Below, piece after piece: positions 22,064 to 45,227 of a stretch of DNA of 64,000 bases. How positions within the stretch are numbered: the first letter of the stretch is position 1; each line of letters opens with the position of its first letter. The position numbers and the translations under genes are program-made. Origin of the DNA: Fibrobacter sp. (GTDB lineage: Bacteria > Fibrobacterota > Fibrobacteria > Fibrobacterales > Fibrobacteraceae); assembly GCA_017503015.1 (NCBI GenBank), contig JAFVTX010000031.1, positions 14,022 through 78,021 of the forward strand. Direction: 5' to 3'. The notes under the pieces were generated by a model. That model made no database searches. It was not told the DNA's origin and was given only the letters and a program-made list of their open reading frames with translations.

Positions 22064-25000
22064 CTACCAGCAGCCAATAGAACACTTCATCACGCCATCA
22101 GTATCACAGGATGTTGTATATGTATTATTTAGATTCTGCCATGCAGCATAGTAATTCAAAGTGTTATTCTTATCTGCAGACTGTGTTCCTACGGTCTTAT
22201 AAAAAGCTCCTGAACAAGATATTACAACATTTCCTGAACAAGTCGCCTTTGCCTTTATATCCACACCACATGGGACATCAACATTCGATGATCCGTTCGT
22301 CAACGAGATTGGACCCAGGTAGCCTACAGTGCAATTTTCGGAGTCTGATCCTTTTGAATTGGTTAGTGTCAATGAATATGTGATATTACCAGCAGAAGTT
22401 GCTCCAGCATCAGTAAAAGAAATTTTTCCACTTCGCCATGTTCCACTAGCAATGGAAACACCCGACTTCTTGATGGAATAATTACATTCTTCCAATGCAA
22501 AACATGCCGGAGCAACAGGCGTTATTGAAGCACTCTTCCCAATACCAACCTGTACTGTAGGACACGAAGATATAGAGGGCGCAACTATAGGCGCACACGG
22601 ATTATACCCAGAAGAGCGAATAGAGACATACTTGTTCGCAATATTGAAATACCATCCACCATCCACTGCCGTATAATTTGCAAGGGCATTTGCACAATTT
22701 GTAGCATTATCATAACACAATTGTCCATTTGACGGAGTACTTCCATTAACTGTATATCCCTGATTTACATCAAGTCTTGTTGCAGATGCTACAAATACAC
22801 ATCCTGTAAACGGGTTTTGATCAATATTGCCTGTTACGATATTATTTTCGCACCCGCTTCCGCAGTAATCCGCACAATGGCATACACTAGTAGGTGACGC
22901 ATATGTCACATCGAAATTGCAGGACTTTGTCGTGGCGACATCGGGGTGCGAGACGGTCAGCGTGTAGGTAACCTTACCAGAACCATTGGCATCCGTGAAA
23001 GTATTTGTAGCGGAATAGCCGTCGTAACTGCTGACTTCGCCTCCATAAACGCTCGTTCCACCCTTGGTGATATTGTACGTGCAGTTCCCTCCGCAGCCAG
23101 TGTAGCTGGTATTGCTGCTGCCCGCTTTGGTCTTGACAGGCGTTATTGTGGTTCCGGCGGCGACAGGCGTGCTCGCTCCAGGATCCGTCCAAGAATCGCA
23201 ATCTAGGTTCAACGGGTAGTTTATGGTGTAGGAGCCCGAACAATCAACAGCACCTTCGGAATCTCGCGTTACCGATGCCGTATAGGTATGGGAACCCGCC
23301 TCGATTGCTCCGTTGCTAATAGAGAATCCGTATGTGTCAGAGTAGGTGCCGCTACCCACAGTTGAACCGTTCTCCTTGACGGTATAGGTACAGGTGCCTT
23401 CGGGGCAACTGACGCTTATCTTATTTGACGGAATTTCTGCCGAACCACCAAGATCCGCAGCAGAGGCATTTGTTGTTCCGCTCGTAATGCTACATGTCAC
23501 CGGATCCTTCACATGCTCAACAACTTTGAATGTCTGGTCGCAAGCATCTAGGCTCTTGATTTCGGTAGCCGAGCCCGCAGGGTTCCTTACCTCGTACTTG
23601 TACAGGTTATCGCTCACGGCCATCTGGGTCGGGCCCACAACATGGGGGTTCTTTGAACAGCCCGTGCTTGCGGCCTGGGCATTTGTACATTCGGAAATCT
23701 TCGTCCCGTTGAGGTAGACCTCGTAGGCGCATCCCTTGGTGGGGCAGCCGCTCAACTCGAAAGAATACTCAGGGTTCCCCTCACCGTACTCGATCTCGTT
23801 GGATGCGTTCATCTTATTGTGTTGCAGGGTCGCGTCGCCACAGGTAATGGAACCGATGGAACAGTCGTTGCCTGGGCAGGTACACGCCACCCACTCACTC
23901 GTGTAGTTGTTCAGTTCCGAATACACCTGGGCACTAAATGTGTAGGTCTTGCCGGCATTGGCGAATGCACCCGGGTCAGCGATTCCGTATTCAAGCCCAG
24001 CATAGTCGCGTTCTATGTCGGAGAGGTAACTTGCACCATTGACATCGGCCTTCAATCTGACTTTTGCCAGCTTATCTGCATTTTCGGGAACGCTGAGCGT
24101 CACCTTCCATTCCGTTTCACCGGCGCGAGTCACCGTACACCCGTCAAACCTGACGGAGTTCTTGCAGAGGGCCTCCGCCGATGTGATCGTCACGGGGTTG
24201 CTCCCGTTATTCCTAAAGGACATGGCGACAATGTTTTCCGGGTCAAACCCTGCGGCATTGTCTGCAAAGTCTTCGTAGGCCGAAGTGCTTGCCGCAACGC
24301 TGAAATGCTTGGTAATCGTCGAGCCAGAGCCGGTTATCCTTACATGGCGGCTTTCGTGGTCTTCGCCACCCCATGCGGCACTGTTACTGATGAGCCAAAC
24401 TTCAAGGTCGACATCGGCATAGTCGTTCGAAAGGGTGATAGCGAGATCCTTTATGCCTCGCAGGTCCTTTGCGGGGGTGAATGTCGGTGTATAGGTTTCG
24501 CCAGCTATAACGGACCTTTCGTTGGCAAGCAACGAAACATCGGCCTGGCACTCATTGAATTTTCCTGTCCAGAAGGGGCCGCAATGGGCCGGGTCTACCG
24601 TTGATTCCCAAGCCAGCACATCCGTCTTCGCGTACTTGCAGTTTGCAAGGGTGGCATAGGCGGTCTTTACATCTTGATCGTTGTTGTCCCTGTAGCCATG
24701 CGCACCGACTCCACTTTCGTCGAAATAGTAGCCGTTTTCACTATCTACAGTGGCATCGTTTGTGGCAGAGCCTGCCACATAGGAGTAGGACACAGAACAA
24801 TCCTTGCTGTCGAACCAGCCGGAATGGCCGACCCAGGGCCTCTGGTAGTCGTTGGACTGGCCAAGACCCGTACCGTAAGTGGGCACAACCCCGTCTACCG
24901 CCACGGCGGCAAAGGAGCACTTGACAGACGGAGGGCCGTCAAAGCATTCTGAACCGTAGTCGTCACTCTGCCAGCCGATACCGTATATTTTGAAATCGCG

Positions 25001-29980: not shown

Positions 29981-29989
29981 AATTCCCTC

Positions 29990-31366
29990 CTAGTCGCGGG
30001 GTCCGTTGCTTGGGATAGGTATAACTACAATAGTTTCGCCGGTTTCTCCCGCGCCTCGAGTAATCTGCAGCGACAGCTGCAAAGCCTTGATGTTCTGCTT
30101 GTCGGCCTTATGTGCTTCCGGGTTGTAAGCCGTTTCAAAACTGTAGTTCAAGCCGGGTACTTCCGTAACCTTCAGGTTCTTGATTTTCAGTATCGCCTGA
30201 GAAGCCTTCGGCGAATAGCAGGCAAAGGTAAATGCAATGCAGCCAGAAACATCTGTCGGTACGGTGAACCTCATATTACGCTTGCCTGTTCCTTGTGAGT
30301 TATACGGTGGAAAAAACAAAAAGTCGTCGAGCATTCTCTTTGGCGGGTCAGCGGCAGCGTCCATCAGGTAATTACCGTTAATATCCCTGAGCCCAACGGA
30401 CATGTGGTCCTCGCCAGGCACAAAGACCTGCAAGGGTATGTTGGGATCCGAGGACATGTTGGTAAAGGGTATTTCGAAGGATATCTCGTATGTGTGCCCC
30501 TTTTGGAATGTAATCAGACCCAGATTTTGGCAGTATTCCTTCCAAGATCCCGCATCGCCGCTTGATATAACAGCGAATGCCTGGTTCATGTTGTTATGGT
30601 CGGACTTGAGCTGTCCCTGGGCGTTGTCATAGTTGGTATAGAACTGCGAAAGCGTAATCTCTTCTCCAGCCCCCATTTCTTCTTTGCCATCGTTTTCCGA
30701 CTTGAAGTTGAAGAAATGCTCGTCGCCAGTCCTTGGTATCAGGCGGAACGAGTTCCCAGGAGTCGGGAAAATCTGCTCCTCGGCCCCGGTTACGGGGTTC
30801 GGAGCCACAACCTGGAACAACCCCACATTCGTTGAAATTTCCACAGCATCTGCGCGGGCCGCATCGGCGCTCCTTGACGGACACGCCTCTTCGGCCTCGC
30901 CCGAAACCGTACGACAACTGCGTTTAAGAACCTGGCCCTCATCAACAAACCAGCAAATCTCTTCCACAGCCTTGTAAAGGCCGTTGGCATCATAACGGGC
31001 CCGCCTAAAGTACAGAACACTCTGCCCATTAAGGGGAATCGTATCTATAAAGAATGAGGAAGAATCCCCGCTGGCCTTGTCCCAATAGACATCATCATAA
31101 ATACTGCTAAAGTTGTCACCAAAGGAACTTCCATCAGTGGCATCGCCCGCCTCTTTTGAACTCTTTGCCCCCATCTGAGATGCATCTGCTTTAAAAAGCG
31201 TTGCTACATTCTCGACCTCCTGGGTGGCCTTGAGGATATTCTGGGTGCGCACACGGAACTTGGTGGAGTCGCTGAAGGCGCGCCCCGCCACGATGACAAT
31301 AATGCCGAGGATGGCCATATAGACCATCAGTTCCATGAGGGTGAACCCGTTCTTGCGTCTAATCAT
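29990..31366 (-). CDS. PilW/GspJ-like minor pilin, left cassette
   Basis: Prepilin leader and cleavage/methylation motif MIRRKNG|FTLMELMVYMAILGIIVIVAG with Glu at +5. Position after the PilV-like gene, with an ATGA overlap. Confidence 0.75.
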   Translation of the reverse strand: MIRRKNGFTLMELMVYMAILGIIVIVAGRAFSDSTKFRVRTQNILKATQEVENVATLFKADASQMGAKSSKEAGDATDGSSFGDNFSSIYDDVYWDKASGDSSSFFIDTIPLNGQSVLYFRRARYDANGLYKAVEEICWFVDEGQVLKRSCRTVSGEAEEACPSRSADAARADAVEISTNVGLFQVVAPNPVTGAEEQIFPTPGNSFRLIPRTGDEHFFNFKSENDGKEEMGAGEEITLSQFYTNYDNAQGQLKSDHNNMNQAFAVISSGDAGSWKEYCQNLGLITFQKGHTYEISFEIPFTNMSSDPNIPLQVFVPGEDHMSVGLRDINGNYLMDAAADPPKRMLDDFLFFPPYNSQGTGKRNMRFTVPTDVSGCIAFTFACYSPKASQAILKIKNLKVTEVPGLNYSFETAYNPEAHKADKQNIKALQLSLQITRGAGETGETIVVIPIPSNGPRD

Positions 31367-31872
31367 CTGATTACCCCCGAAACTGAAATGGACTGGATGG
31401 AACCTTTGTAGGGCCAGCTAACCGTGACATTGACCCGCTTGGCGTAAACATGAGCAGCGCCATTTTCACCCACAAGAAGGCTACTCGAATTCGCCTCAAA
31501 TGTTTCGTCGCCGGAAACTTTTACATTGACTGTGTAAGTAATGCTTATGTTGTGTTGCACAATTCCTGGCTGACCTTTCCACTCCTGGACAATTTCTTGC
31601 GGAGGAAGGCTCCAAGTCCCGTCCTCGTTGTTGGTGAGGTGAGCGTCCGTAAAGCTCGCAAGCCCCTTGGAACTCAAATCGTCAATCACATTTTGGGCCA
31701 CCTCGGTAGCGCCATCGCGGCCACGGATACGCAACAAGGCGTCACGGTTGCCCGTCTGCAGGTTGCAGACCGCGGTGTACAGAAGTCCAAGCACCAGTGC
31801 CGCAACAATGACCTCCATGATGCCAAAACCGCGCTTGGGCTTGCACAAAACTGGTAAACGCTGAACGAACAT
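31363..31872 (-). CDS. PilV/GspI-like minor pilin, left cassette
   Basis: MFVQRLPVLCKPKRG|FGIMEVIVAALVLGLLY. The ATG at 31872 is chosen by comparison with the paralog; the ORF track start is 31911. Confidence 0.7.
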   Translation of the reverse strand: MFVQRLPVLCKPKRGFGIMEVIVAALVLGLLYTAVCNLQTGNRDALLRIRGRDGATEVAQNVIDDLSSKGLASFTDAHLTNNEDGTWSLPPQEIVQEWKGQPGIVQHNISITYTVNVKVSGDETFEANSSSLLVGENGAAHVYAKRVNVTVSWPYKGSIQSISVSGVIR

Positions 31873-31882: not shown

Positions 31883-32422
31883 CTATAGCTTCGACCAGTC
31901 ATCCGATCCACTCTTCAACTTGGATATAAACACATTTTTAGTCCTTTCTTTAACCGCGGCTGCATACAAGTCGCGGTCGCCATATTTCACCACTATGTAA
32001 CCCTCGTAAGGGGCGGTAGAAAGTCCTGGACGCGGGATAAAGGATGCCTGGGCTTCCGTCGAAGATACTAGGTTATAGCCATCAAGCCCACCAAAATCAC
32101 TAGTGATAATCGAGGACTGAGCATCAAGCACCAAACTATCGATAGGGGTGTCGAAATTGCCAGAGGCACACGACGCTCTGTAAGTTTTGAGCATTCTGTC
32201 CCCGTCATTTCGGACGCACAGAGAATCGTTAATCTGGCGAGCCTTGTTGGCAACCATTTCTAGGTAGGCCGCTACATTGAGAGCCGAATCCTTGGTTCGA
32301 GCATTAGCCACCGCACTTTGAAACCCGACCACACCCATGCCCGATAGGATGCCCATAATAGAAATCACCGCCAGTAACTCGACCAGCGTGTATCCCGCTT
32401 TTTTATGTGGTTTGCTCTGCAT
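31883..32422 (-). CDS. GspH/FimT-FimU-like minor pilin, left cassette
   Basis: MQSKPHKKAG|YTLVELLAVISIMGIL followed by ALNVAAYLEMVANKARQ (GspH/FimT-like helix). ATG at 32422; the ORF track start 32446 is a GTG inside the conserved leader. Confidence 0.7.
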   Translation of the reverse strand: MQSKPHKKAGYTLVELLAVISIMGILSGMGVVGFQSAVANARTKDSALNVAAYLEMVANKARQINDSLCVRNDGDRMLKTYRASCASGNFDTPIDSLVLDAQSSIITSDFGGLDGYNLVSSTEAQASFIPRPGLSTAPYEGYIVVKYGDRDLYAAAVKERTKNVFISKLKSGSDDWSKL

Positions 32423-32520
32423 ATACAGTTCCCTATTCAAAATCACCCTACGACCAAAAACTGGGTGGGCACACCTCCCTAAGCCCGGAAACCCAGTTTC
32501 CCTTCCTGCTTAAAATAGCT
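32413..32520. repeat. Inner inverted repeat, left copy (leader plus first 3 codons of the left cassette)
   Basis: The reverse complement matches 35554-35661 with 2 mismatches in 108 nt by hand alignment (90 nt uninterrupted). Identity stops abruptly at both ends. Confidence 0.9.
32456..32502 (-). promoter_or_regulatory. Identical leader hairpin and T-run in the left cassette 5' leader
   Basis: Mirror copy of 35572-35618 within the inner inverted repeat. Confidence 0.45.
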
Positions 32521-32528
32521 TTTTTTTT
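32520..32528. repeat. T9 (A9 on the coding strand) homopolymer at the inner edge of the left inverted repeat
   Basis: In cassette orientation: gcgAAAAAAAAAgcTATTTTAAGC. An A-tract directly upstream of a TAT-rich -10-like box. The right-hand copy lacks the tract (acatacaagcTATTTTAAGC). Confidence 0.8.
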
Positions 32529-32560
32529 CGCAAATAGTTCACATTTTTTTACAAAGGGGA

Positions 32561-32590
32561 CAAAAACCGCCTTTTCGAGGTAAAAAAGGC
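32561..32590 (-). terminator. Terminator after the central Rpn gene, insulating it from the left cassette
   Basis: Minus strand: gccttttttacctcgaaaaggc followed by ggtttttg. Confidence 0.6.
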
Positions 32591-32650
32591 AGTTTGTGAC
32601 GAGTGATGGGGTGGAATACGCTTGTTTAACGCAAGAAATGCGTCAAATGT

Positions 32651-33610
32651 TTATTTTAGCGCTTCTGCTTTGGCGATAATGCTCTTGGAAACGCCCTGGG
32701 ACCGGAGCAGTTCAATCACTTTGTCTATTCCTTTCTCCATTCCTTTCTCCATTCCTTTCTCCATTCCCTTTTTCATGCCTGCACGACGGCCTGCCCGCTC
32801 TGCGGCACGTCGAGCATCGCCGGCACTTACAAATCCCAGTCTTTGTCCTATGCTTTTCCATGCCATCTGCAATTCCTCCAGGCTTTCCTCGTCGATGAAC
32901 TCTCCTAAATATAAATTAATTTTGTCAAGAAAGACATTCTTGCCGTAATTCCCCAACATCCAAAGACGCTCTCCTATGGCTCGCGCCAAGTCTGACAGTC
33001 CTCGCTTATCAAAGGCATATTTCAGTATAAGCGCTCCAATCGCTGCTTCCACATTGTCGTCGGCGAGACACGATTCATCGTTCAGTTCAGACATGTTCAC
33101 CATCACGAGTTCAAACGGAAGATCTTTTCCCTGAAATTTTGCGCGATTCTTACGCTTGAAGGCTGCCACCGGGTCCCAGCTTCGTTTTCCGTTGTAGATT
33201 ATTATCGCTTTGGTCGGATACCAGCGGAATTCCGGGTCGTTTTTGTTTACCATTACATTGAACGCATATCGCCCCACCTGGTCGAGAAGTGCTCTGTCGG
33301 AAGCGGACTTGTGTTCTAACAGGATTCCCACGAACACATCTTTGCCCCTATACGCCTTCGCCGTGAACGCGAGATCCGATTCGCCCTTCTCGCCAACTTC
33401 GTTGTAAAAGCCGGGAAACAGCGTAAGTGTGTCGAGGTTCACGTCTTCGAGCATGGCATCTAGCTCCCTGTTGGCTTCACGTGCAAGGGTCAGGAGAGTC
33501 TTTGCGTTGGTCGGTTTGGAATAGATGTAACGGAAGAACCCGTCATGGTTCCTTCTTGTTGGATTGTTGCGTTTCTTCAAGTTTCTTGAATCCACCTGCT
33601 TGTTATTCAT
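32651..33610 (-). CDS. Rpn family recombination-promoting nuclease / putative transposase (YhgA-like)
   Basis: N-terminus ...RRNHDGFFRYIYSKPTNAKTLL resembles the RpnA/YhgA HDxxFK start. ILLEHKS nuclease block. C-terminal (GMEK)x3 repeat. Confidence 0.75.
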   Translation of the reverse strand: MNNKQVDSRNLKKRNNPTRRNHDGFFRYIYSKPTNAKTLLTLAREANRELDAMLEDVNLDTLTLFPGFYNEVGEKGESDLAFTAKAYRGKDVFVGILLEHKSASDRALLDQVGRYAFNVMVNKNDPEFRWYPTKAIIIYNGKRSWDPVAAFKRKNRAKFQGKDLPFELVMVNMSELNDESCLADDNVEAAIGALILKYAFDKRGLSDLARAIGERLWMLGNYGKNVFLDKINLYLGEFIDEESLEELQMAWKSIGQRLGFVSAGDARRAAERAGRRAGMKKGMEKGMEKGMEKGIDKVIELLRSQGVSKSIIAKAEALK

Positions 33611-33735: not shown

Positions 33736-33740
33736 TGGCG

Positions 33741-34244: not shown

Positions 34245-34345
34245 CCGTGGCTGCAATCAGGGGGAAGGCTTTCCCCCTTTTTTAGGTAGGAAAGAGTCGC
34301 TCCTTTTGGCGAAAAACGGGGATTTTGCGGGTGGTGTGACATTCC

Positions 34346-35356
34346 GTGCACACCGCTTTGCCTATTATTTGGGGCATGGAGTGGAAACGTTTGTCGGTGG
34401 TACAGCGGCACAAGAGTCGCGGGATAAAGACCTGGTACCTCCGGGAAAATTCGGGCGGCGTGATTTCGTACAGGTCGCTGGGGACCACGTGCAAGAGGGT
34501 GGCGGAGGAGTGCCTGCAGAGGCTTCTGGTGCTGCGTTTCGCCATGCCCGGGGAGGTGCTGGAGGGGGTGCCCATGGAGGGTGCTATGCGGGAGTTTCTG
34601 GAGCGTCCGGGCCTGAAAATGGGCAGCGTGGAGCAGTACCGCCGTATTCTGGAGCATTTTTCGGGGTGGTGCAAGGCCCAGCGGGTCCATGACCTGCTTT
34701 CTGTGGACGAGAGGCTCGCGCGGAAGTACTATGCGTCGCTCCGGGGGAAGTCGGCGCGGCACAAGTGTCGCGTGTGCGGGTGCTTTTTGAGCTGGGTTTA
34801 CCGGGAAAATCGGGTGGAGCGGGCCCAGCCTTTCAAATTCGTGGATTTTCGGCGGGTGGCGAAGGTGGAAAGGGACGCCTGGAGTGTCGATGAGGTGGAG
34901 CGCATCGTGGAGACGGCGCCTACGGCCGAGATGCGGATGCTGTGGGCGCTGATGGCCTACGCGGGGCTTCGGGTCCACGAGGCGGCGGGGCTTAGGCAGG
35001 CCGACATTCTGGGGGACCGTTTCCAGGTTGTGGGAAAGGGGGACAAGTTCGCGGTGCTGCCCATAAACGGGCGGCTCCGGCGGGAACTGGAGCGGTTCGG
35101 AAGCCTGGGAGACGGGCTGAAAATCGACAAGCAGAAATCTATTCGTGAAATCAAGAAGGTCTGCGCGCGGCTGAAGATTGAAGGCTGGGCGTCGAACCAC
35201 AAGTTCCGTCACAGTTTCGCGACGAATCTCGCGGCCAGCGGGTGCCCTGTGGCGGTGGCCATGCGGCTGTTGCGGCACAGTTCCAGCGCCATGACGCTGG
35301 ACGTTTATACCCACATTGTGCCCGCCGATATGCGGGAGTGGGCGGAAAAAGTGTAA
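34346..35356 (+). CDS. Tyrosine site-specific recombinase (XerC/D-phage integrase family)
   Basis: Catalytic pattern AGLRVHEA (Arg), HKFRHSFAT (HxxR), LLRHSS and LDVYTHI (Tyr). Alternative ATG start at 34376. Markedly GC-rich relative to its neighbours. Confidence 0.85.
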   Translation: MHTALPIIWGMEWKRLSVVQRHKSRGIKTWYLRENSGGVISYRSLGTTCKRVAEECLQRLLVLRFAMPGEVLEGVPMEGAMREFLERPGLKMGSVEQYRRILEHFSGWCKAQRVHDLLSVDERLARKYYASLRGKSARHKCRVCGCFLSWVYRENRVERAQPFKFVDFRRVAKVERDAWSVDEVERIVETAPTAEMRMLWALMAYAGLRVHEAAGLRQADILGDRFQVVGKGDKFAVLPINGRLRRELERFGSLGDGLKIDKQKSIREIKKVCARLKIEGWASNHKFRHSFATNLAASGCPVAVAMRLLRHSSSAMTLDVYTHIVPADMREWAEKV

Positions 35357-35373
35357 AAGTTGCGCCGAACTGG

Positions 35374-35505
35374 GCGCAAAAATCATGCCAAATACAGGTG
35401 GGCGCGGACCTGGCTCCGGTTAGCTTCGATTAGCTCCGGGTGCAAAAATCGAGCCAAATGCGGATAAACGCGGGTAGGCTCAGACGCAAAAACTGTGCCC
35501 AAATA
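35374..35505 (+). promoter_or_regulatory. Three direct ~20-bp iterons between the recombinase gene and the right inverted repeat
   Basis: gcgcaaaaatcatgccaaata (35374), gtgcaaaaatcgagccaaatg (35440), acgcaaaaactgtgcccaaata (35484). GCAAAAA cores are 66 and 44 bp apart. A weaker copy gcaagaaatgcgtcaaatg lies near 32625-32645. Confidence 0.5.
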
Positions 35506-35553
35506 ATGCACACAACGCGCCAATTCCTTTATTCTAAAGGGAAAATACATACA

Positions 35554-35661
35554 AGCTATTTTAAGCTGGACGGGAAACTGGGTTTCCGGGCTTAGGGAGG
35601 TGTGCCCACCCAGTTTTTGGTCGTAGGGTGATTTTGAATAGGGAACTGTATATGCAGAGCA
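35554..35661. repeat. Inner inverted repeat, right copy (leader plus first 3 codons of the right cassette)
   Basis: agctattttaagctggacgggaaactgggtttccgggcttagggaggtgtgcccacccagtttttggtcgtagggtgattttgaatagggaactgtatatgcagagca. Confidence 0.9.
35572..35618 (+). promoter_or_regulatory. Leader hairpin followed by a T-run (possible attenuator) in the right cassette 5' leader
   Basis: gggaaactggg ... cccagttttt arms enclose an inner gggc/gccc stem. Competing small palindrome ggaaactgggtttcc (35573-35587). Confidence 0.45.
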
Positions 35662-36188
35662 CATCGCATAAAAAGGCAGGCTTTACGCTAGTGGAAATGC
35701 TGGCGGTTATTTCCATTATGGGTATCCTTGCTGGCATGGGGGTTGTCGGTTTCCAAACCGCCGTGGCGCACGCCCGCACTAAAGACGCCGCCCTCAATGT
35801 GGCTGCCTTCTTGGAGCGCACGGCCAACGAGGCCCGCAAGTTGAACACCTCCCTGTGTATCCGCAATGACGGCACCAGCAAGCTGGTGGTCTACAAGTCC
35901 GCCTGCAATGCCGGTACCATGGGCGATGCTGTGGACCAGCTGGTTCTGGAAAGTCAGGTTACAGTTGTTGTTAGCGATGTGGATGATGTTGGCGGTGGCG
36001 GAATCAACTTAATCACTTCGACAGACGCCAAAGCCACGTTCAAACCGCGCCTGGGGCTTTCATCGGCACCCTATGAAGGGTATGTAGTCGTGAAGTACGG
36101 CAGTGAACGCGGAGCGGCGGTCAAGGAAAAGACAAAGAATTCGTTCAAACCCAAGTGGAGCCCTTCGGGGTCCTGGTCGGATTTGTAG
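35652..36188 (+). CDS. GspH/FimT-FimU-like minor pilin, right cassette
   Basis: MQSTSHKKAG|FTLVEMLAVISIMGIL...ALNVAAFLERTANEARK. Paralog of 31883-32422. Confidence 0.7.
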   Translation: MQSTSHKKAGFTLVEMLAVISIMGILAGMGVVGFQTAVAHARTKDAALNVAAFLERTANEARKLNTSLCIRNDGTSKLVVYKSACNAGTMGDAVDQLVLESQVTVVVSDVDDVGGGGINLITSTDAKATFKPRLGLSSAPYEGYVVVKYGSERGAAVKEKTKNSFKPKWSPSGSWSDL

Positions 36189-36198
36189 GGGGCCTACG

Positions 36199-36705
36199 AT
36201 GCACGTGCAGAATGACATAAAGCAATCCCGCAAGCGTGGCTTCGGCATCATGGAAGTCATGGTGGCGGCTTTGGTGCTTGGCCTCTTGTATGCTGCAATC
36301 TGCCAGCTACAGAAAGGTAACCGCGATGCGTTGCTGCGCATCCGTGGACGCGACGGCGCTACTGAGGTGGCTCAGAATGTGATTGACGATTTGAGCTCTA
36401 AGGGACTTGCAAGTTTTGCAGACATGAACCTCACCGAAAACGGTGACGGGACCTATAGCCTCGAGCCACAGACAATTGTCAGGGAGTGGAAAGGTCAACC
36501 GGGAACAGTACCTTATACCATAAGCATCGATTATACGGTCAATGTGAAAGTCTCTGGTGACGACGAATACAAGGCAAACACAGGGAGCCTTCTTTTGGGA
36601 GCAAACAGCGTCTCCCACATTTATGCCAAACGGGTGGACGTCACAGTTAGCTGGCTCTACAAGGGGTCCACCCAGTCCATCTCTGTCTCGGGGGTAATCA
36701 GATGA
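36199..36705 (+). CDS. PilV/GspI-like minor pilin, right cassette
   Basis: MHVQNDIKQSRKRG|FGIMEVMVAALVLGLLY. Closely similar to 31363-31872 along its whole length. Confidence 0.7.
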   Translation: MHVQNDIKQSRKRGFGIMEVMVAALVLGLLYAAICQLQKGNRDALLRIRGRDGATEVAQNVIDDLSSKGLASFADMNLTENGDGTYSLEPQTIVREWKGQPGTVPYTISIDYTVNVKVSGDDEYKANTGSLLLGANSVSHIYAKRVDVTVSWLYKGSTQSISVSGVIR

Positions 36706-38072
36706 TTAGACGAGAAAAAGCCGGTTTCACCCTCATGGAACTGATGGTCTACATGGCCATTTTGGGCATTATCGTTATTGTGGCTGGCCGTGCCTTTAGC
36801 GACTCCACTAAATTCCGCATACGTACCCAGAACATACTCAAAGCTACCCAGGAGGTTGAAAATGTGGCGACGCTGTTCAAGTCAGATGTGGCTCAGATGG
36901 GAGCGAAGAGCTCAAAAGAAGCAACCGTAGCTGGAGGAAATGACTCTTTTGAAAAAATCACAAACTGCACTTCCACTGCAGATTGCATTTACATGGACCC
37001 CAACAACGCTTCAGCGAACAATAAGGATTCTTCTTCTTTTGCAATCACAAGCAAGGAAAAGAATAAATATGACAGCATTGCGTTATTGCGCATTCGCTAC
37101 GATGAACAGGGAAAATACCAAGCGCTAGAAAAAGTGGAGTGGTACGTAGAGGATGAAGTTTTGAAACGAAGCTGCCGACTAATGCAAAAGATAAGCAGCC
37201 TTAATGTAACCGACGACCCATGTTCCAATGGGCCAAATTCAACACCTACACCTGTTGAAATGGCGACAGGTGTAAAAAAATTTACTGTCATTCCGGGATT
37301 GCCAAATATCCGCAGCAACGCTGCCGCAGGCTATACAGAAGAACAACTGTTTCCTCCTGGAGGGGGTGAATCCTTTAAATTTCTTTCTCGCTATGGTGAG
37401 ACAGACTATATCATACTTTCCATTCTGGATAATGGAACTTCGTCTACTTTGAGCGGATTCAAGCGAAATTACGACCTTACCGATGCGACAATAACCACAG
37501 AAAGTAAACAAATGAACCAGGTTTTTGCGGCAACAAACGAGGACTTGGAAGGCGATTGGAAGGATCGATGCTACAAGTTTAAGCTAGAGCCGGGAATAGA
37601 GTATGAAATCTCTTTTGATATGCCGTATCCTACATCCGCAAAAGACATGGCACAACTTTTCGTTCCTGGTCGAGACCACATGTCTGTGGGGTTCCGTGAC
37701 ATTAATGGGGATGCACCTGCAACAATTGACGACTTCCTCTTTTATCCGCCAACAAGCAACGAATCCGTTGGTAAGCGAGCTATGCGCTTTACAGTACCAG
37801 ATACACTAAAAAATCAGTGTTTGGCATTCACATTTTCAACTTACTCACCAAAAGCTGCAGAAGGGACAGTCACTATTTCAAATCTAAGGCTTAGGCGAGT
37901 TGCCAGTTCCACCTACAATTTTAATCCATCAGTTAGTTTGCCCATTAAGGACAAGAAAAATGTCAAGGCTTTGAAAATCAATCTGCAGATTGCTCGAGGC
38001 GACAAGAACCCCGGTGAAACAGGTGAAATTGAAGTGGTTATACCAACTCCCAGCAATGGCCCCAGGGACTAG
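36702..38072 (+). CDS. PilW/GspJ-like minor pilin, right cassette
   Basis: MIRREKAG|FTLMELMVYMAILGIIVIVAGRAFSDSTKF. N-terminal ~60 aa and the C-terminal ...VVIPTPSNGPRD are conserved with the left copy; the middle is diverged. Confidence 0.75.
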   Translation: MIRREKAGFTLMELMVYMAILGIIVIVAGRAFSDSTKFRIRTQNILKATQEVENVATLFKSDVAQMGAKSSKEATVAGGNDSFEKITNCTSTADCIYMDPNNASANNKDSSSFAITSKEKNKYDSIALLRIRYDEQGKYQALEKVEWYVEDEVLKRSCRLMQKISSLNVTDDPCSNGPNSTPTPVEMATGVKKFTVIPGLPNIRSNAAAGYTEEQLFPPGGGESFKFLSRYGETDYIILSILDNGTSSTLSGFKRNYDLTDATITTESKQMNQVFAATNEDLEGDWKDRCYKFKLEPGIEYEISFDMPYPTSAKDMAQLFVPGRDHMSVGFRDINGDAPATIDDFLFYPPTSNESVGKRAMRFTVPDTLKNQCLAFTFSTYSPKAAEGTVTISNLRLRRVASSTYNFNPSVSLPIKDKKNVKALKINLQIARGDKNPGETGEIEVVIPTPSNGPRD

Positions 38073-38081
38073 GAGGGAATT

Positions 38082-41000
38082 ATGATGTTCGGAATTCAAA
38101 ATTCAAAAATAGGAACGAAAGCCGGTGTATCCTTAGTTACCGTACTTTTGTTTATGCTGGTAGCCACCATCGCGGCTACTGCTACCTACAAGTGGATTAC
38201 CAGCGAAGGTAAATCTAGCACGAGTCGTATGATAGAACGTGAGGCGTACCAAAGCGCTATTGCGGGTATTGAAAACGCCCGTAGCTGGATGACATATCAT
38301 GCAAACGATGTAGGTGCGTTGATTAAGCAATATAAAGAAAATGGTAGTAAGCCAGTGAAACTGGATGGACAGTTGGCTGAGTTTATGCGTGCGGGACAAA
38401 CTTTTCATGTTTGGCTTACTGGCGTAAATACAGAAAGTTCAACATATAAGTTGAAGATCGTATCACAGGGCATTGCTCGCGATGGCGGAGCAACACATAG
38501 CGAAGTGGCGATTCTTGATGTAAATGGGCTATACCAGGTAAAGATTCCCTCAGTAAAATATACAGGAGAGGCGATATTCAACGAGGCTTTCTTTGGTTCT
38601 GCAAAAAATGGAATCAGTCTAGAAGTGAACTCGGCGATTTTCAATGGCGATACAAAGTTCAACACAAAATTTAATGCATCTGATTACGTTATCGTTACAG
38701 GAAATGTTAACGTTAATAGCAATACGAATGTAGGGGACCTTTATGTTAAAGGAAATTTATGCTCTTGTACAAACCTTAATGTAAGTGGCAACACCTATGT
38801 AGAAAGTAAGATGTACATAAATGGAACACATGTATACAATGGTGACATTTATGCAAAAGGAGGAATAGACCTATCAAAGAAAGGCGCAACGGGGTGTCAG
38901 TGTAACACTGGCTATGGAGGCGATTTTACCGTTGGTGGAAATGTTTCAACAGAGGGGGATCTCGTAATGTCACGGGCAACCTCACCAAATGTAAATACAT
39001 TTGGTGGAAATCTCGTCTTAAAAAATGGTGCAAAAATCGATTTCCCTACTCTTTCGGAGTTCTCGTATAGCACTGCAGGGGGATTGCCGACTCAAACACA
39101 TATTAGCGGGAATGTTTTTCTAGATGGTGGATTTTCAAACGGATGGTTCATGGGATATGCAAGAGCTGGTCAGGTGTCGCTTACCTCCGCAGGAAAAACA
39201 TTTTACTCATCAACCCCAATGTATCGGGTTTCTGACGCAAATCAGAATGTCGTGTATAGTTGGTGGAAAAAAGCAAATAACGAGCATCAAGATACTGATA
39301 TTTCAGGAGACGCAGATGGGCTTTATGCAATCGATAAAGGTGGCCGCAGCTACAAACTGACGGCGGTTCCCAAAAACACTTTTTGCAACAAGTCTAATTG
39401 CCAACCTACAGATGATTTTTCTGACACTTACTTTTGGGACAACGCACATTTTTACTGTCCAAGTTGGGAACAAAAGGGATATTGGGAGGGATTTAACTGG
39501 ATTACGTATAGTGAGCCATCTGGATGTGGAAATTGTTCTTGGTATCAAGAAAAAGCTGGTGTAGGGGACCGGAATGGCTACAGATGGAAATGCGATACAA
39601 AAGGAAAGCAAACAAGCCGAAATGAAATCTTTGTGCAAATCAACGGAACATACTCCGCTACTAAACCGGATACCACCGGCTGGGGAGCAGACAGATTAAT
39701 GGACTATGAGAATAAAATTACTGATGAGAATACGGGGTCGGGATGCGGAACATCAAATCATGTAGCAGATCCTATACAGTTCAATAAGGATCTTCTCACC
39801 CACAACTTGATGCATACGAAAGATAAGCCGATGGAATGTGATGATGCGACGCTTTGGAATTCTTGGCCAAATGATCCCTGGGGTCAGTTGAACTCCTGCT
39901 ATCAGAAAGCGAAGGCGGCCAATAAGCTTTATGACAATCAGTGGCTTTTAATAAATGTCGGCAAGGCGGTTTGGGCAACGGAAAATTCTCATTATCTGCA
40001 AGGCAACTTTATAATTGTGATTGAAGGCGATAATGGCTACGGTTTATATTTGCCACAAACAAGGGCTCAGGCCGATGAGTCCCCTTCCCATGTAATTCTT
40101 TATTTCCCCAATGGATATGACAAAACGCTCAATAGCAAAGCATCCTCTGGCCCAATGAATTATTTTGTCTTCAGCGACGGAGATTTAAAGAATACACAGC
40201 TGGGCGGAACAAAAATCAACGGCTCGGTTTTCCTGACAGATTGCCATAATATGGGAAGCGACCAAACGATTAAAATCGAGTTCAATCCAGACCTTGTCGC
40301 AGCCCTTGAAGGCTCCGGCGTCATCTGTACTAATGATGGTACTGATAAGTGTTCTCCCAACGCAGGTAGCTCATCGTCCGCCGCTTCTTCGGCTTCTTCT
40401 GAAACAATTTCTTTCGGTGGAACAGACAGTTACTATATCTCTACAGCTCCGCAGCTTTCTATCACGCTGGAAAGCCAGTATGCAAACAACGAAAATGTTG
40501 AAAATATTGCTAGCACAGGGGAAGACTCTAAGGGGAGTTTCGTAGTTCTGCCCCGTGTCATCTATTTGCCAACCGACCCACCAGGAAAACTTGAACATTA
40601 CTACAATGTAATTCCGCTTAATTCAAAACAAACTGTGGAATCCCAGTCCATTACTTGTGAGGGCGGAATTCCGACCAGCGGCAAGCTTTACGACGGAACA
40701 ACATCCCTTGTAGAAGGCTACTACACTTGCAATGTGTCAGGAACTGTTTCTGGAGTAAGTTCCACCGTCCCGTTATATGTTGTAGTTCGTGGAACCGATG
40801 CCACCACCCCGAAGGTTACATTTGTTACAGATGATGTAGAATTGCCCAAAGAAGAGGCTACAACAGTTCAATTAACGGTCCCCAATACCACAGGAGCCGC
40901 CCAAACCTTCAAAGTCAAGGTAGCCCGTAGCGGAACAGAGACTGGCTGGACCGTAACGCCTATAAACCCCATCGGAGCGTGCGATGCAAATAGCGAATGT

Positions 41001-44000
41001 ACCTTCCAAGTCAGCACCACTGGCGGTCCAACGAACATTTTTACGGTCACGAATAATTCCGCAAGTTCTGGAATACTTACCTTCCAGATTTTGGACTGCA
41101 TAGAGGGCGGTTGCAATGTAGGCATCCCCAATATTGAGCTCGTCTACATATTTAGTAGCGTCAAAGTCAAAAGGAAAACACTTGCCGAATGGTGTGCCGA
41201 AAATGGGGATGATGCTGATGCAACGAAATGTGCTAAGAAAAATCAACCTGACTGTCCTTTATCAGACGAATGGATTCGTGCAAATGGAACAAATTGTACC
41301 GCAAATCCAATCAACAATGCTTGGGATTGCGACATTACAGATGACATAAGTCTGGAACTCATTAATTCAAATATTCCCGATGGCTGTGAAGCTATAATTC
41401 CAGGAGACAACCTACTAGAAGCACCTTTTGCCAACAAGTCAACAAGGTATCTTTATGCCTCACTCAAGGCAAAGAAAAAAATGTTCCATACAGGGTTCAA
41501 AATACCTTCTGATATTGACCCTGATCAGACAATTCATATTCTTGCAGAACACAACGGAGTTGCTGATGAAGAAAAGGATTGTTCCTATTCTGATTTCACA
41601 AGCAACACGGATGGTGTCCGAGAAGAACACTGTGATATTGATGTTTACTACGGATCGCGTGTAACCCTGAGCCTAAAGAATGACTCCGACCGAGACAATT
41701 TTAACTACTGGCTATGCACCTCTGGTGTAGATTGTCCTAGCGAAAAGATTCCTGTCAACACCTACACTTACTCTATTTCCATCACTGGTGAGAATACGGT
41801 CTACGCACACTATAACGAAAAAGATAAGCATTGTTTCTTTGACGAGTTTAAAGACAAGAAGAATTCTTACGGAAACCGCGCTACCATGGCGTGTGGAACA
41901 GAAAAAGAGTACTGCATTGATGTATGTAATGGCACATGTTCTAACGCAATTACTACTAGTTCTGGTGATGGCGCCATGCCAGATGCAAAATGGAGACTTA
42001 TTGATGGAGACTTGAGCAATATTGAGTTCTCTGGCGATGGGAAAATCAGCCTAAAATCGAACACCACGCGGGGGCGCAAGGAAAACACCAAGGGTTCCGC
42101 TACAATTATGAGTTCCGTGCAGGCAGGCATCTATGGAACACTTAAGGCTCAGTTCCAGGTCCCCCGTGAGGGCGTGAACGAGAATGACGAAGCCAAGTCA
42201 ACAATAAAAAAATCAGGTTTTATGTTACGCTCCAACACCAATGGAAGCAGCTATTTAATGCTGAATATCTTTAGCGACATATCTGGATATCTAAAGGCTA
42301 GAATTTGTTTGAATGGCGGTAATACCTGTAAAGAGAAAAGGATTGGTTCCGCTAGCGCCAATGAGGGTGCCATTGTCACAATTTCTGCGACACTGCAAAA
42401 ACTAGTCAATCCAAGTGATGGAACCTATAAGGACGAACTTGAAATTCGCGCCTATACAAACGCATTTAGCAGCTACTATGAATTCACGACCTTCGATTTA
42501 ACCAATTCAGAACTGAATGGCGTTGAGGATTTGGCAAATCAGACTCATGAATATCTGGGAATGAAGCTTTCTGACCAAAATTTCAAGATTTATGGAATTG
42601 GATGGAAGAGTGACGACTATGTTTCAGAATGCTGGGATGTTTATCCAACAGTTTCATGTTCTTTCAAAGCTGCATACGCAGGCGGCATTGTTCCTCAATC
42701 CACAGCGCTTTCGAGTAAACCCGTTAAGCCATGGGTCGGACTTTCCAGCTGGTTCGAAAATGCTGGTGGATGCACTCGCGTATATTACTACAAGGGAAAC
42801 GACGCCGGTTGTTACGGCAGTGTGACGGGAACCGATGATTACAAGGAATGTACGAATAATTATTATGAATTTACCACAAGTGGCCCCCACGGTGCAACTG
42901 CGGATGGCGATAAAACGGCAAAAGCAGGTGTTAGTGGGTGTACTGTTTATGGAGAGGCTGCCGCCTGGGCGAATAGCGCTGTAGCGGCACACTGTGGTGC
43001 TTTCTGGGTGGGTGAATTTAAGAATTGTAGTCAAAATGTGGCTTTTGGTCATACAGTCGATGGAGCTGACGGTAGTTACTTTGCGCTTGATGCAAATGGA
43101 TCCGGGGCTGCCAATCTTCGAGATGCCGATTTAATCGTCACCCTAGACAATCCCAATGGTGCAGAAGTATCGGTTTATCTATTCAGTAAGAATTCAGAAA
43201 ATGGTTACACCTACGGCAGTGCCCCTGTTTACAGCCAGTCCTATACCACGACTATGCAAGGGACCAATTTCGACATCTCCATAGCCGTATCCAACATCTC
43301 TAATGTGGAGGGATTTGATCCTGAACATGTGGTGGGAGTGTACATAAAGACTGATGACGCAAATGTGAATATCCGTGCGGTACGAAGCAGTTGCGAACAT
43401 GTGTTGAAAATAGCAAGCTGCTCGGCCAGTTGGGATGGAGTAAATCGGAAGTTTAACATTTCTGCCAAAGTGAACAACCATTCCGATGCGGGTAGTTTTA
43501 CAGTTACTGAGAAAAACAGCAACATTACAGGGAGCATTGCAAAGGATTGCAAAAATAGCGAATGCAGCTGGTCGGGAGACAATGCCGAGTTTGAATGGAG
43601 TTACAATGCGTTCGACGATGTTGTCTCTGATCCTTCGGGGTACAGGGATTACTATTTCGTGATAGGCATGAAGGACAAGGAAGGAGGGGATACTGAGGAC
43701 TCCCCCTGCACTACTCCGGCGGTCCGAGTAAGCAAGATTTCTGCCACATGCAGTGTAAATAAGGAATCTGTAGAGAGAGGTACCGGACTACCCGTCTTTA
43801 CCTATTCCATAAGTGGGTGTCCTTCAGATAACACTGGTTGCCCGTATGAAATTAAACTTCAAGATATTGATCAACAACTGATTAGCGCCTCTAGTGGCAA
43901 TTTCAACGGAAAGACAACAGATCCAGAAGCAGCCAACACAAGCGGGAATCCGCTTGATGCGGGAACCTACAAATTTGTCATGAAAAGTACCAATGCCAAC

Positions 44001-45227
44001 CAGCCGTTTGCTGATTGTGAGGAAGAATTTACCGTGACAATTCCGTCAAGCTCATCGGTAGAAAGCAGCAGTAGCATTCCTTCGAGTAGCAGTGTGGCAA
44101 GTAGCAGTTCTGTCGCTTCGAGCAGTAGTGTAAGTGGAGGCGGATTCTCTTGCACTTACACAGGCACAACAGGTGTAAAAATCCAGGGAGGAGTCGGCAA
44201 TCAAAATCTGGCTTCGACCAACGCACCGCATGCACAATATGACTTGTACATTGATGATGAAAAAAAGGTTACCGGTACTTGGGGACTTGGATTCAATTTT
44301 ACTACGCCCACGTCGCTTGGCAATCATACTTATAAGGTTACTAAAATGGGAGAAACAGCTCCACAATGTCAGGGATCTTTCGAAGTGGTCAACCCATTGC
44401 AATGTAGCGTCGATGATGTGATTCCATTAAATGTTGCAAAAACATTTAGTGTATCCGTGATGGACAATTTTAGTTGTTCAAATTGCAATTACACTAATGT
44501 CGATTGCGGATACAGTTGTAGCGGAGGGAGTGTAACCAATTACAGCTTTACGCTAACAAACATGAATACAACAGAATTGAAGGTTCAATGTCAGTGCAAC
44601 GACAACATCAATCAGACATGTGCAAAATCTGTCACTGCAGTTCGTACCGCACCAACATTTAGTTGCAAAACGGGGCTGAAAGCCACCGTAGGTGAAACGA
44701 ACAATGTGAAAATTGTTTTGCTGGGTGTCACTGGTTGTGATGAAAATAGCCCTTGGTGCCGCTCCACCATTACGGGAACAGGAATCAGCGATCAAACAGG
44801 AATTGGCGTTTCTGACGGATCAACTGTAAATCTCACGGCTTTCACGGATAATGGTGGTACTGACGGGGCTACTAAGACCTATACGGTAACTCTTGAAAAT
44901 TCTGTCGGCCTTAGCGATGCCAGAACCTGCAGTGTGGAATTTACCGCAGGTTCCAGCTTTGCGTGCAATAGTGGTAATTCTGCGGCTTTGTCAAGCATGA
45001 CAGTACAGACAAACAAGTGCTACAAATACACTGTCGCGAGTTCGGGCAATTTCTATGTTGGAAACTGGTCTGGATCCGGAGTTGGAATGACCTATACTGA
45101 TTGCGGAGGAACTCCGCATACAGTCACTGTGGCTAATGGTAATTGGACTACATATGCCGTGGGTGGCGGGTGTGAAATCTACGCTGAATTTACAACAAGC
45201 GCCTATGTGCAATTTAACACTTACTAA
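38082..45227 (+). CDS. Giant PilX-N-terminal-domain protein (2381 aa), right cassette; candidate pilus-tip adhesin
   Basis: TKAGVSLVTVLLFMLVATIAATATYKWITSEGKSSTSRMIEREAYQSAIAGIENARSWM. Same RBS as the left copy. Cys-rich with a Ser-rich linker (SSSVESSSSIPSSSSVASSSS). Visibly AT-richer gene. Confidence 0.8.
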   Translation: MMFGIQNSKIGTKAGVSLVTVLLFMLVATIAATATYKWITSEGKSSTSRMIEREAYQSAIAGIENARSWMTYHANDVGALIKQYKENGSKPVKLDGQLAEFMRAGQTFHVWLTGVNTESSTYKLKIVSQGIARDGGATHSEVAILDVNGLYQVKIPSVKYTGEAIFNEAFFGSAKNGISLEVNSAIFNGDTKFNTKFNASDYVIVTGNVNVNSNTNVGDLYVKGNLCSCTNLNVSGNTYVESKMYINGTHVYNGDIYAKGGIDLSKKGATGCQCNTGYGGDFTVGGNVSTEGDLVMSRATSPNVNTFGGNLVLKNGAKIDFPTLSEFSYSTAGGLPTQTHISGNVFLDGGFSNGWFMGYARAGQVSLTSAGKTFYSSTPMYRVSDANQNVVYSWWKKANNEHQDTDISGDADGLYAIDKGGRSYKLTAVPKNTFCNKSNCQPTDDFSDTYFWDNAHFYCPSWEQKGYWEGFNWITYSEPSGCGNCSWYQEKAGVGDRNGYRWKCDTKGKQTSRNEIFVQINGTYSATKPDTTGWGADRLMDYENKITDENTGSGCGTSNHVADPIQFNKDLLTHNLMHTKDKPMECDDATLWNSWPNDPWGQLNSCYQKAKAANKLYDNQWLLINVGKAVWATENSHYLQGNFIIVIEGDNGYGLYLPQTRAQADESPSHVILYFPNGYDKTLNSKASSGPMNYFVFSDGDLKNTQLGGTKINGSVFLTDCHNMGSDQTIKIEFNPDLVAALEGSGVICTNDGTDKCSPNAGSSSSAASSASSETISFGGTDSYYISTAPQLSITLESQYANNENVENIASTGEDSKGSFVVLPRVIYLPTDPPGKLEHYYNVIPLNSKQTVESQSITCEGGIPTSGKLYDGTTSLVEGYYTCNVSGTVSGVSSTVPLYVVVRGTDATTPKVTFVTDDVELPKEEATTVQLTVPNTTGAAQTFKVKVARSGTETGWTVTPINPIGACDANSECTFQVSTTGGPTNIFTVTNNSASSGILTFQILDCIEGGCNVGIPNIELVYIFSSVKVKRKTLAEWCAENGDDADATKCAKKNQPDCPLSDEWIRANGTNCTANPINNAWDCDITDDISLELINSNIPDGCEAIIPGDNLLEAPFANKSTRYLYASLKAKKKMFHTGFKIPSDIDPDQTIHILAEHNGVADEEKDCSYSDFTSNTDGVREEHCDIDVYYGSRVTLSLKNDSDRDNFNYWLCTSGVDCPSEKIPVNTYTYSISITGENTVYAHYNEKDKHCFFDEFKDKKNSYGNRATMACGTEKEYCIDVCNGTCSNAITTSSGDGAMPDAKWRLIDGDLSNIEFSGDGKISLKSNTTRGRKENTKGSATIMSSVQAGIYGTLKAQFQVPREGVNENDEAKSTIKKSGFMLRSNTNGSSYLMLNIFSDISGYLKARICLNGGNTCKEKRIGSASANEGAIVTISATLQKLVNPSDGTYKDELEIRAYTNAFSSYYEFTTFDLTNSELNGVEDLANQTHEYLGMKLSDQNFKIYGIGWKSDDYVSECWDVYPTVSCSFKAAYAGGIVPQSTALSSKPVKPWVGLSSWFENAGGCTRVYYYKGNDAGCYGSVTGTDDYKECTNNYYEFTTSGPHGATADGDKTAKAGVSGCTVYGEAAAWANSAVAAHCGAFWVGEFKNCSQNVAFGHTVDGADGSYFALDANGSGAANLRDADLIVTLDNPNGAEVSVYLFSKNSENGYTYGSAPVYSQSYTTTMQGTNFDISIAVSNISNVEGFDPEHVVGVYIKTDDANVNIRAVRSSCEHVLKIASCSASWDGVNRKFNISAKVNNHSDAGSFTVTEKNSNITGSIAKDCKNSECSWSGDNAEFEWSYNAFDDVVSDPSGYRDYYFVIGMKDKEGGDTEDSPCTTPAVRVSKISATCSVNKESVERGTGLPVFTYSISGCPSDNTGCPYEIKLQDIDQQLISASSGNFNGKTTDPEAANTSGNPLDAGTYKFVMKSTNANQPFADCEEEFTVTIPSSSSVESSSSIPSSSSVASSSSVASSSSVSGGGFSCTYTGTTGVKIQGGVGNQNLASTNAPHAQYDLYIDDEKKVTGTWGLGFNFTTPTSLGNHTYKVTKMGETAPQCQGSFEVVNPLQCSVDDVIPLNVAKTFSVSVMDNFSCSNCNYTNVDCGYSCSGGSVTNYSFTLTNMNTTELKVQCQCNDNINQTCAKSVTAVRTAPTFSCKTGLKATVGETNNVKIVLLGVTGCDENSPWCRSTITGTGISDQTGIGVSDGSTVNLTAFTDNGGTDGATKTYTVTLENSVGLSDARTCSVEFTAGSSFACNSGNSAALSSMTVQTNKCYKYTVASSGNFYVGNWSGSGVGMTYTDCGGTPHTVTVANGNWTTYAVGGGCEIYAEFTTSAYVQFNTY

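Follow-up and report, generated by a model that had tools for sequence, protein, structure and literature searches.

The 64-kb window analysed here comes from an uncultured rumen Fibrobacter (all plain coordinates count from its first letter), and it contains two paralogous four-gene cassettes of about 10 kb each, which encode minor pilin-like proteins and lie head-to-head around a 3.04-kb core (32511-35563) with a tyrosine recombinase gene and an Rpn gene. This layout had been recognised in the original prediction, and it was confirmed by open reading frame (ORF) calls, by the pilin motifs and by alignment of the two arms. Each cassette consists of the genes T (GspH/FimT-like), V (PilV/GspI-like), W (PilW/GspJ-like) and a giant X (PilX/GspK-like). 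In the left cassette, all on the minus strand, these are T (31883-32422, 179 aa), V (31363-31872, 169 aa, a length also annotated in identical contigs), W (29990-31366, 458 aa, with a large globular part) and X (22064-29980, 2638 aa). In the right cassette, on the plus strand, they are T (35652-36188, 178 aa), V (36199-36705, 168 aa), W (36702-38072, 456 aa) and X (38082-45227, 2381 aa). As had been read from the sequence at the outset, the V and W genes overlap by ATGA and CTAGGAGGGAATTATG precedes the giant gene in both copies. The mirror symmetry spans about 21757 to about 45455 and includes similar terminator hairpin regions, seen as inverted repeats, 3' of the left X (21940-22063, minus) and of the right X (45228-45335, plus). 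Two PDDEXK_2 genes stand just outside the giant genes and point inward, so that the symmetry reaches them as well.

The pilin-like character of the proteins was examined using hidden Markov models (HMMs). The models of the prepilin N-terminus (N_methyl, PF07963, and TIGR02532) exceeded the cut-off on the T and W proteins of both cassettes (for example, 31.8 bits for the right T and 31.6 bits for the left W) and fell below it on V (17.9 bits for the right V), and the cleavage motifs can be read directly, with the slash marking the cleavage point: G/YTLVE in T, G/FGIME in V, G/FTLME in W and G/VSLVT, followed by a hydrophobic helix, in X, which has no Glu5, as in GspK and PilX. The family models matched through the N-terminal segment only and stayed below their cut-offs: GspH gave 36-40 bits against 80 (35.8 for the left and 39.5 for the right T), PilV 13-16 against 52, GspJ 17 against 65, and PilX_N about 16-21.5 on both X proteins (21.5 on the right one) against 25.5. 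Thus, of the HMM calls proposed at first, the pilin-type N-termini of T and W and the Phage_integrase domain described below were recovered and the four family assignments fell short, and we therefore call the genes family-'like' and not members. Their assignment is based on gene order, size, motifs and structure models; some W homologues are labelled 'GspJ/PulJ family' by their sources. The expected contrast between conserved N-terminal helices and diverged globular parts was also found. The left and right T proteins are 80% identical over residues 1-60 and 42-58% beyond, the W proteins 95% over residues 1-60 and 28-48% afterwards (48% overall), and the X proteins 52% over residues 1-250 and then 13-34% (27% overall).

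Structure models gave further indications on W and X. The model of the right W (predicted local distance difference test score, pLDDT, 84) comprises an N-terminal helix (residues 11-64), a pilin-type sheet and a CBM4-like beta-sandwich. In Foldseek searches, the sandwich matched CBM4 modules, the adhesin Epf and SGBP-B, a surface glycan-binding protein from Bacteroides, with E values of 7e-6 to 5e-4; the matches to CBM4 structures (E 4e-5 to 5e-4) had a probability of 1.00, but target-normalised template modelling scores (TM-scores) of 0.4-0.5. The same model also matched one chain in the model of the XcpGHIJK pseudopilus (E 2.6e-3), and the left W gave a weak independent Pfam CBM_4_9 match at residues 242-308 (18.4 bits, cut-off 25.9). 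Residues 1-350 of the right X were modelled (pLDDT 80) as an N-terminal helix, a small sheet and a beta-solenoid, for which the top PDB match in Foldseek, the Thermus tip pilin ComZ, was not significant. The remainder of X belongs to no recognisable family, and the giant proteins gave no useful sequence matches in Pfam, NCBIfam or the PDB. On these models, a tip complex with exchangeable glycan-binding parts, which may serve as an adhesin, is plausible; published models of Fibrobacter adhesion to cellulose include pili (PMC4668043).

The recombinase gene of the core (34376-35356, plus strand; 326 aa, with an alternative GTG start at 34346) encodes a protein that matches Phage_integrase (PF00589) over residues 172-314 with 65.5 bits against a cut-off of 27.1, and its homologues are precomputed as PF00589. 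In an alignment of 18 sequences, the catalytic residues R199, K221, H275, R278 and Y311 show no variation and H301 hardly any, and HKFRHSF and LDVYTH motifs can be read in the protein. The XerC and XerD equivalog cut-offs were not reached (XerD, 76 bits against 330; XerC, 71 against 335). Homologues at least 58% identical all appear to be of Fibrobacter type, with Fibrobacteraceae given where the source is named, and relatives at 30-41% identity are prophage integrases that stand beside tail-fibre-like genes, with no pilin cassettes. As these prophage integrases form the nearest outgroup, the recombinase looks like a domesticated phage integrase. The gene content first proposed for the core was therefore upheld, with the coordinates of the recombinase corrected: a 443-aa minus-strand ORF (34055-35386) first taken as the recombinase had no family match and lies antisense to the real gene in a stretch of 59% GC. 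In two related contigs (L102 and L103; loci and contigs are cited here by L numbers), the gene tables place a 419-aa product on the minus strand here and list no integrase, so that the recombinase can be overlooked in annotations.

The other core gene (32651-33610, minus strand; 319 aa) encodes an Rpn/YhgA-like PD-(D/E)XK protein (Transposase_31, 54.6 bits against a cut-off of 21). With the recombinase on the plus strand, each core gene faces outward, toward one cassette. Since the Rpn gene is absent from the 1.29-1.76 kb cores of L012, L016, L017, L024 and L027, and core length ranges from 1289 to 6082 bp, the recombinase can be regarded as the constant centrepiece and Rpn as optional cargo. 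A tandem GMEK-coding repeat (32730-32767, minus) lies near the C-terminus of Rpn; the called length of this protein differs among near-identical contigs (267, 305, 315 and 319 aa), and L105 begins right beside the repeat. Three further PDDEXK_2/Rpn-like genes are present in the window, at 16669-17688 (minus), 20818-21756 (plus) and 45464-46180 (minus).

Recombination sites and the two core ends

The core is bounded exactly by an 11-mer, AAGCTATTTTA, which stands in inverted orientation at its left (32511-32521, minus) and right edges (35553-35563, plus) and has only these two copies in the window. The similarity of the two arms (263 nt at 83% identity) ends exactly at these sites. Within the arms, a 90-nt block (32413-32502, equal to 35572-35661) is 100% identical, the surrounding coding DNA being 76-83% identical, and most of this block is held by the two leaders, or 5' untranslated regions (32423-32510, minus, and 35564-35651, plus). 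About 20 related loci from Fibrobacter, whose cores measure 1.3-6.1 kb, have the same bounds. Long homology is not required, given that the arms of L012, L016, L017, L020, L027 and L029 have no more than 11-15 nt in common. In L029 (9690-10000 and 10955-11200), both sites bear the same G-to-T change (AATCTATTTTA), a concerted change of the kind expected where strand exchange depends on matching sites. A more diverged site variant is present in L006 and L026.

The two inner flanks of the core differ from each other, and each is conserved and keeps a fixed relation to the recombinase in all lineages. The flank behind the recombinase (the A-side) consists of a hairpin with a T-run, followed by TTTGTAAAATATTTTGAAC, about 10 nt, an A8-10 tract and GCTATTTT. 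In the window it forms the left end of the core, where the terminator-like hairpin and T-run (32561-32592, minus) lie next to a promoter-like region, on its core-inward side; this hairpin is found at the same position in every lineage with differing stem sequences, and it is likely an insulator. The promoter-like upstream half that follows (32522-32557, minus) is kept in all lineages and here reads TTTGTAAAAAAA, a -35-like GTGAAC (32537-32542) and an A9 tract, with 19 nt to a TATTTT inside the site. The opposite flank (the Int-side; 35495-35552, plus) is likewise kept across lineages and carries the block GTGCCCAAATAATGCACAC...CCTTTATTCTAAAGGGAAAATACATAC, always 3' of the recombinase, with two hairpins and without a -35-like element.

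The possible role of the A-side can be seen by comparison with the cultured Fibrobacter sp. UWT2, which was found through the W search and carries a static, single T-V-W-X operon after ileS (L201:8959-18387, FRBF01000007.1; X of 2353 aa), without a recombinase or a twin cassette. The region upstream of this operon aligns with the A-side plus the site: it has TTTTGAGC, 19 nt ending in an A-tract and then TATTTT, and it has AAGTTATTTTA where the recombinase-bearing loci have AAGCTATTTTA. The recombination site falls within this -10-like TATTTT. Since the A-side shares homology with the sequence natively upstream of this operon family, it is presumably one half of a promoter, and recombination would then take place in the -10-like element.

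Each leader starts with a conserved hairpin of the form GGAAAC-NGG-GTTTCC (GGAAAC-TGG-GTTTCC in the left leader), in which the stem varies among lineages and the pairing is kept, as judged by eye. A hairpin conserved in this way would fit a transcript that begins directly past the site. Each leader (35572-35620, plus, and 32454-32502, minus) also folds into a stem, AAACTGGG...CCCAGTTT, followed by TTTTTGG, which is terminator-like; the stability of the leader fold was not significant (z = -1.55) and the leader had no Rfam match. Rfam searches of the whole window (gathering threshold) and of the core plus leaders (E up to 1) detected no riboswitch or RNA family. Two leader single-nucleotide polymorphisms (SNPs), +14 and +18, were tried as cassette markers and were not diagnostic.

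Some related loci have unusual junctions at the Int-side. In L006 (1255-1730; recombinase 60% identical), the Int-side block ends in the variant site CAAGTTATTAT, which faces the 3' end of T2SSF/T2SSE (PilC/PilB-type) genes with no second cassette, and 15 of the 17 contigs with an L006-lineage recombinase are shorter than 2 kb. In L028 (10960-12281), the Int-side site is fused to the interior of a giant gene, right after AAGCTATTT, and in L026 (1905-2700) to the last 150 codons of a W gene. The L028 and L026 fusions look like deletions or off-target recombination at the site.

Cassettes at either core end in related loci

A recombinase between mirror-image cassettes was found in L001, L012-L017, L020-L025, L027, L029 and L121, with recombinases 59-99% identical to that of the window and no phage genes adjoining the recombinase; in L016, each side has only W and X. 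A scan of Joint Genome Institute (JGI) metagenomes added just three relevant loci. The comparison with related genomes, which had been proposed as a check, thus showed that Fibrobacter genomes and metagenomes keep this arrangement. No cultured strain with the locus was found, and it is absent from UWT2 and F. intestinalis. All fetched loci were oriented by the recombinase, so that cassette orthology reveals the orientation of the core. The W and X proteins of the left, A-side cassette of the window have their orthologues on the Int-side in L017 (73-74%) and L001 (57% and 44%). Likewise, the Int-side of L012 matches the A-side of L028 (80-83%), and the A-side of L016 matches the Int-side of L020 (70-71%).

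Closer relatives were obtained by exact-protein look-ups of both T proteins, which led to contigs from many metagenomes; look-ups of Rpn and of the two start variants of the recombinase gave no new junctions. The right cassette of the window (R, at least 99.95% identical) is on the Int-side in L100-L103 and on the A-side in L099 and L104-L108. The left cassette (L) is on the A-side in L100, L101, L114-L116 and L118 and on the Int-side in L111-L113. Therefore, orientation among the relatives is not single and fixed: cassettes 99.6-100% identical to those of the window are found at either core end in different metagenomes, and all junctions lie exactly at the motif. For example, L100 matches the window over 12.5 kb with 100% identity, and in L106 R is joined to an A-side inner flank that agrees with the window at all of 1036 nt. 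The L106 contig thus has the structure predicted for a flip of the window's own core.

Other features of the window can be described briefly. REP-like palindromic units, GGATCCTCGCC...GCGAGGATGAC and CCCGGC...GCCGGGATGACAA, are present at both outer ends of the locus and within the core (21757-21990, 33740-33830, 34140-34185 and 45340-45460). Left of the locus, there are two genes for PKD-domain proteins (14694-16529 and 19294-20619, both minus) and a 1485-aa ORF (10018-14475, minus). No tRNA genes were found in the window, and a third cassette elsewhere in it was ruled out, as there are only two sites in 64 kb.

A candidate split-promoter switch and its alternatives

We consider it probable that the core is a split-promoter inversion switch between two pilus-tip operons. 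In the proposed switch, the core would be a site-specific invertible element whose own tyrosine recombinase would cut and rejoin DNA at the two inverted sites, each of which would sit in the promoter region of a minor-pilin operon, within its -10-like TATTTT. Every cassette would retain its -10-like element, leader and genes after a flip, and the upstream promoter half, made up of the insulating hairpin, an AT-rich TTTGTAAAA...TTGAAC -35-like element and the A-tract, would be available on one core end only. Using this arrangement, the cassette at the A-side (in the window, the left one) would receive a complete promoter and be 'on', the cassette at the 3' end of the recombinase, the Int-side (in the window, the right one), would be without a complete promoter, and a flip of the core would swap which four-gene tip set is produced. 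The original prediction had proposed a recombinase-governed either/or choice between the two tip complexes. The sites and the presence of both junction states support the recombinase-governed part, and the either/or transcription is what we infer from the homology of one core end to the upstream, presumably promoter, region of the static single-operon locus. Because the N-terminal helices are nearly identical, both tips could enter the same filament, and because the exposed parts differ (CBM4-like on PilW/GspJ, a giant beta-solenoid on PilX/GspK), a flip would alter tip binding or display. Exchange of whole cassettes between strains takes place as a second process in addition to the switch.

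Several points weigh against this interpretation. First, the two states come from contigs of different samples. The species of L001 showed a single orientation in 5 samples, and L012-L015, four assemblies apparently from one bioreactor sample (two name run ERR1278103), also have one orientation. Orientation is partly lineage-linked: the contigs L099, L104 and L105, with R on the A-side, share the SNPs 40407G and 41481G, and the contigs with R on the Int-side are without them. Second, whole 'flipped' cores are spanned only by L099 and L111, in which the partner is a third cassette and the core is 5-12% off that of the window, so that part of the variation is strain-level cassette replacement. 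Some of the two-state pattern could thus come from exchange rather than from in-place flipping. In addition, L106 is a 4.4x SPAdes contig and the L114-L116 haplotypes have an identical 109-nt leader on both arms, which makes a mis-join conceivable. Third, a sigma-70 scan flagged nothing at the A-side, where the 19-nt spacing put the candidate promoter out of its reach. The literature yielded no promoter consensus for Fibrobacter, and a crude test for motif enrichment, run on 18 upstream regions of the window, gave no information; conservation is what suggests a promoter there. Finally, since the -10-like element stays with both cassettes, the one on the Int-side may not be fully off, and the terminator-like hairpin of the leader may provide a separate control, or attenuation, of transcription.

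The strongest alternative is that the locus serves as a cassette-exchange platform, in which the recombinase and its 11-bp site would mainly acquire or swap whole 10-kb tip cassettes between strains in an integron-like manner, both cassettes would be transcribed from their own promoters, and the orientations would be by-products. The cassette alleles are hypervariable and common to diverged cores, and the W family alone comprises >590 clusters. Recombinases 98-99% identical flank cassettes only 40-55% identical, and, conversely, cassettes 99.6-100% identical stand beside the cores that have diverged by 5-12%. Cassette orthologues can also be closer to each other than their recombinases (80-83% versus 69% for L012/L028, and 70% versus 61% for L016/L020). 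Furthermore, the third cassette, Z (L099:1-3019 and L111:1-2742; leader type GAAAGACGGAATGCG), of which the two copies are 92.5% identical, has R as its partner in one strain and L in a second one, giving three cassettes in the three pairings L+R, R+Z and L+Z, and the sites of L026 and L028 that are fused to gene interiors would be off-target joins. From these mismatches between cassettes and cores, it follows that cassettes also move between strains. As a full account of the locus, however, the exchange platform seems improbable to us. There is no site at the outer end of a cassette (both copies of the site are at the core), so that excision as a circle is not evident, and cassettes could equally be exchanged by homologous recombination, with the conserved core and the mirrored outer flanks as substrates. 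Moreover, a switch would require two unlike core ends, one of them homologous to the sequence upstream of a static locus, and an exchange platform would not.

Inversion could also be real and be driven by RecA-type homologous recombination between the long inverted repeats of the leaders and 5' gene regions, as in the sap locus of Campylobacter fetus, with the recombinase not being the catalyst. The 263-nt arms of the window with their perfect 90-nt block would suit such a process, and leader SNP alleles are shuffled between cassettes in L114-L116, which suggests exchange within the leader. We regard this as very unlikely, because the arms of six lineages share merely 11-15 nt, all junctions map exactly to the motif, the two sites of L029 bear the same substitution, and a recombinase with intact catalytic residues is kept in every locus. 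That the locus consists of static divergent paralogous operons, between which a prophage-derived integrase and Rpn landed without any movement on a physiological time scale, is highly improbable: the prophage outgroup of the recombinase, the multiple Rpn/PDDEXK_2 genes of the window and the lineage-linked orientation in the contigs at hand would agree with it, but the integrase between cassettes and the exact sites are conserved down to 59% identity, the same cassettes occur at both core ends and no phage genes adjoin the recombinase.

For the split-promoter switch, the closest known mechanism appears to be the expression-site switching of Mycoplasma Vpma/Xer1. In M. agalactiae, the gene for a tyrosine recombinase lies next to the variable genes, and through inversions at sites in 5' untranslated regions a single promoter comes to serve a different gene (PMC2268961). 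The Vsp system of M. bovis and the Vsa/HvsR system of M. pulmonis can be grouped with it. Compared with the Vpma system, in which single lipoprotein genes are switched, the Fibrobacter locus has two alternatives only, each of them a four-gene operon of 10 kb, and its cargo is a type IV filament tip set in another phylum, Fibrobacterota. In addition, the recombinase and the presumed promoter half would ride on the invertible piece, and with the site within the -10-like element the promoter would be split.

Other inversion systems share some of these features. In Salmonella, Hin is a serine recombinase, and the alternative flagellin is silenced indirectly by a repressor. Like the Hin/fljBA system, the proposed element would bear the recombinase gene and an outward promoter and would choose between two surface-filament antigens, but the off-state would result from the place of the cassette at the other end of the element, not from a repressor. 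In the fimS switch of Escherichia coli, the tyrosine recombinases FimB and FimE act on short inverted repeats around a pilus-operon promoter, and the ends are asymmetric. A tyrosine recombinase, a pilus operon and asymmetric ends are thus common to both, whereas fimS is an on/off switch with nothing on its far side and with the recombinase genes outside its 314-bp element. In C. fetus sap, a promoter on an invertible segment lies between opposed homologous surface-protein genes, with arms formed by their conserved 5' regions. The two opposed homologues, which here would flank one presumed promoter half, are similar, but sap depends on RecA and long homology, and the Fibrobacter locus has short conserved sites and a dedicated tyrosine recombinase.

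Recombinase-driven variation of type IV pilus adhesins or pilins is found in the shufflon of R64/IncI plasmids, in which the tyrosine recombinase Rci acts on pilV, and in Moraxella with Piv. A plasmid system related to the R64 shufflon has been described (PMC9045228). Those systems swap C-terminal coding segments of one gene, with several sites inside coding DNA; the Fibrobacter locus is not a shufflon, since it has only two sites, both upstream of the start codons of complete operons, and swaps no coding segments. Regarding the cargo, the cassettes resemble FimU-PilVWX and GspHIJK in gene order (H/FimU-, I/PilV-, J/PilW- and K/PilX-like) and in the last subunit being without Glu5, and the X model resembles Thermus ComZ in having a pilin head that carries a beta-solenoid. 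They differ in the size of the K/X-like subunit (2400-2600 residues), in the CBM4-like module on the J/W-like subunit and in having no separate PilY1. The novelty would lie in the two complete 10-kb tip operons, in a promoter divided at the site, in the phylum and in the association with operon-scale cassette diversity.

Implications for Fibrobacter

Fibrobacter ranks among the main degraders of cellulose in the rumen. The literature searched contained no description of this arrangement, as the original prediction had also suggested, and no phase-variable system for Fibrobacterota turned up in it. If our interpretation is correct, inversion switching would have a new layout here, with a half-promoter that travels with its recombinase and selects between two complete tip assemblies. 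It would also make adhesion specificity, variation of antigens or phage receptors, and the very great allelic diversity that the cassettes show in gut metagenomes more tractable. We also propose, as a broader and more speculative idea which we think unlikely but worth stating, that the locus toggles between two tips with different glycan-binding modules and that the same 11-bp site docks whole 10-kb operons traded between strains. If this were true, the toggle would be a form of bet-hedging over the type of plant fibre, or over pressure from phages and antibodies, and phase switching and operon-scale exchange would be combined in one locus of Fibrobacter.

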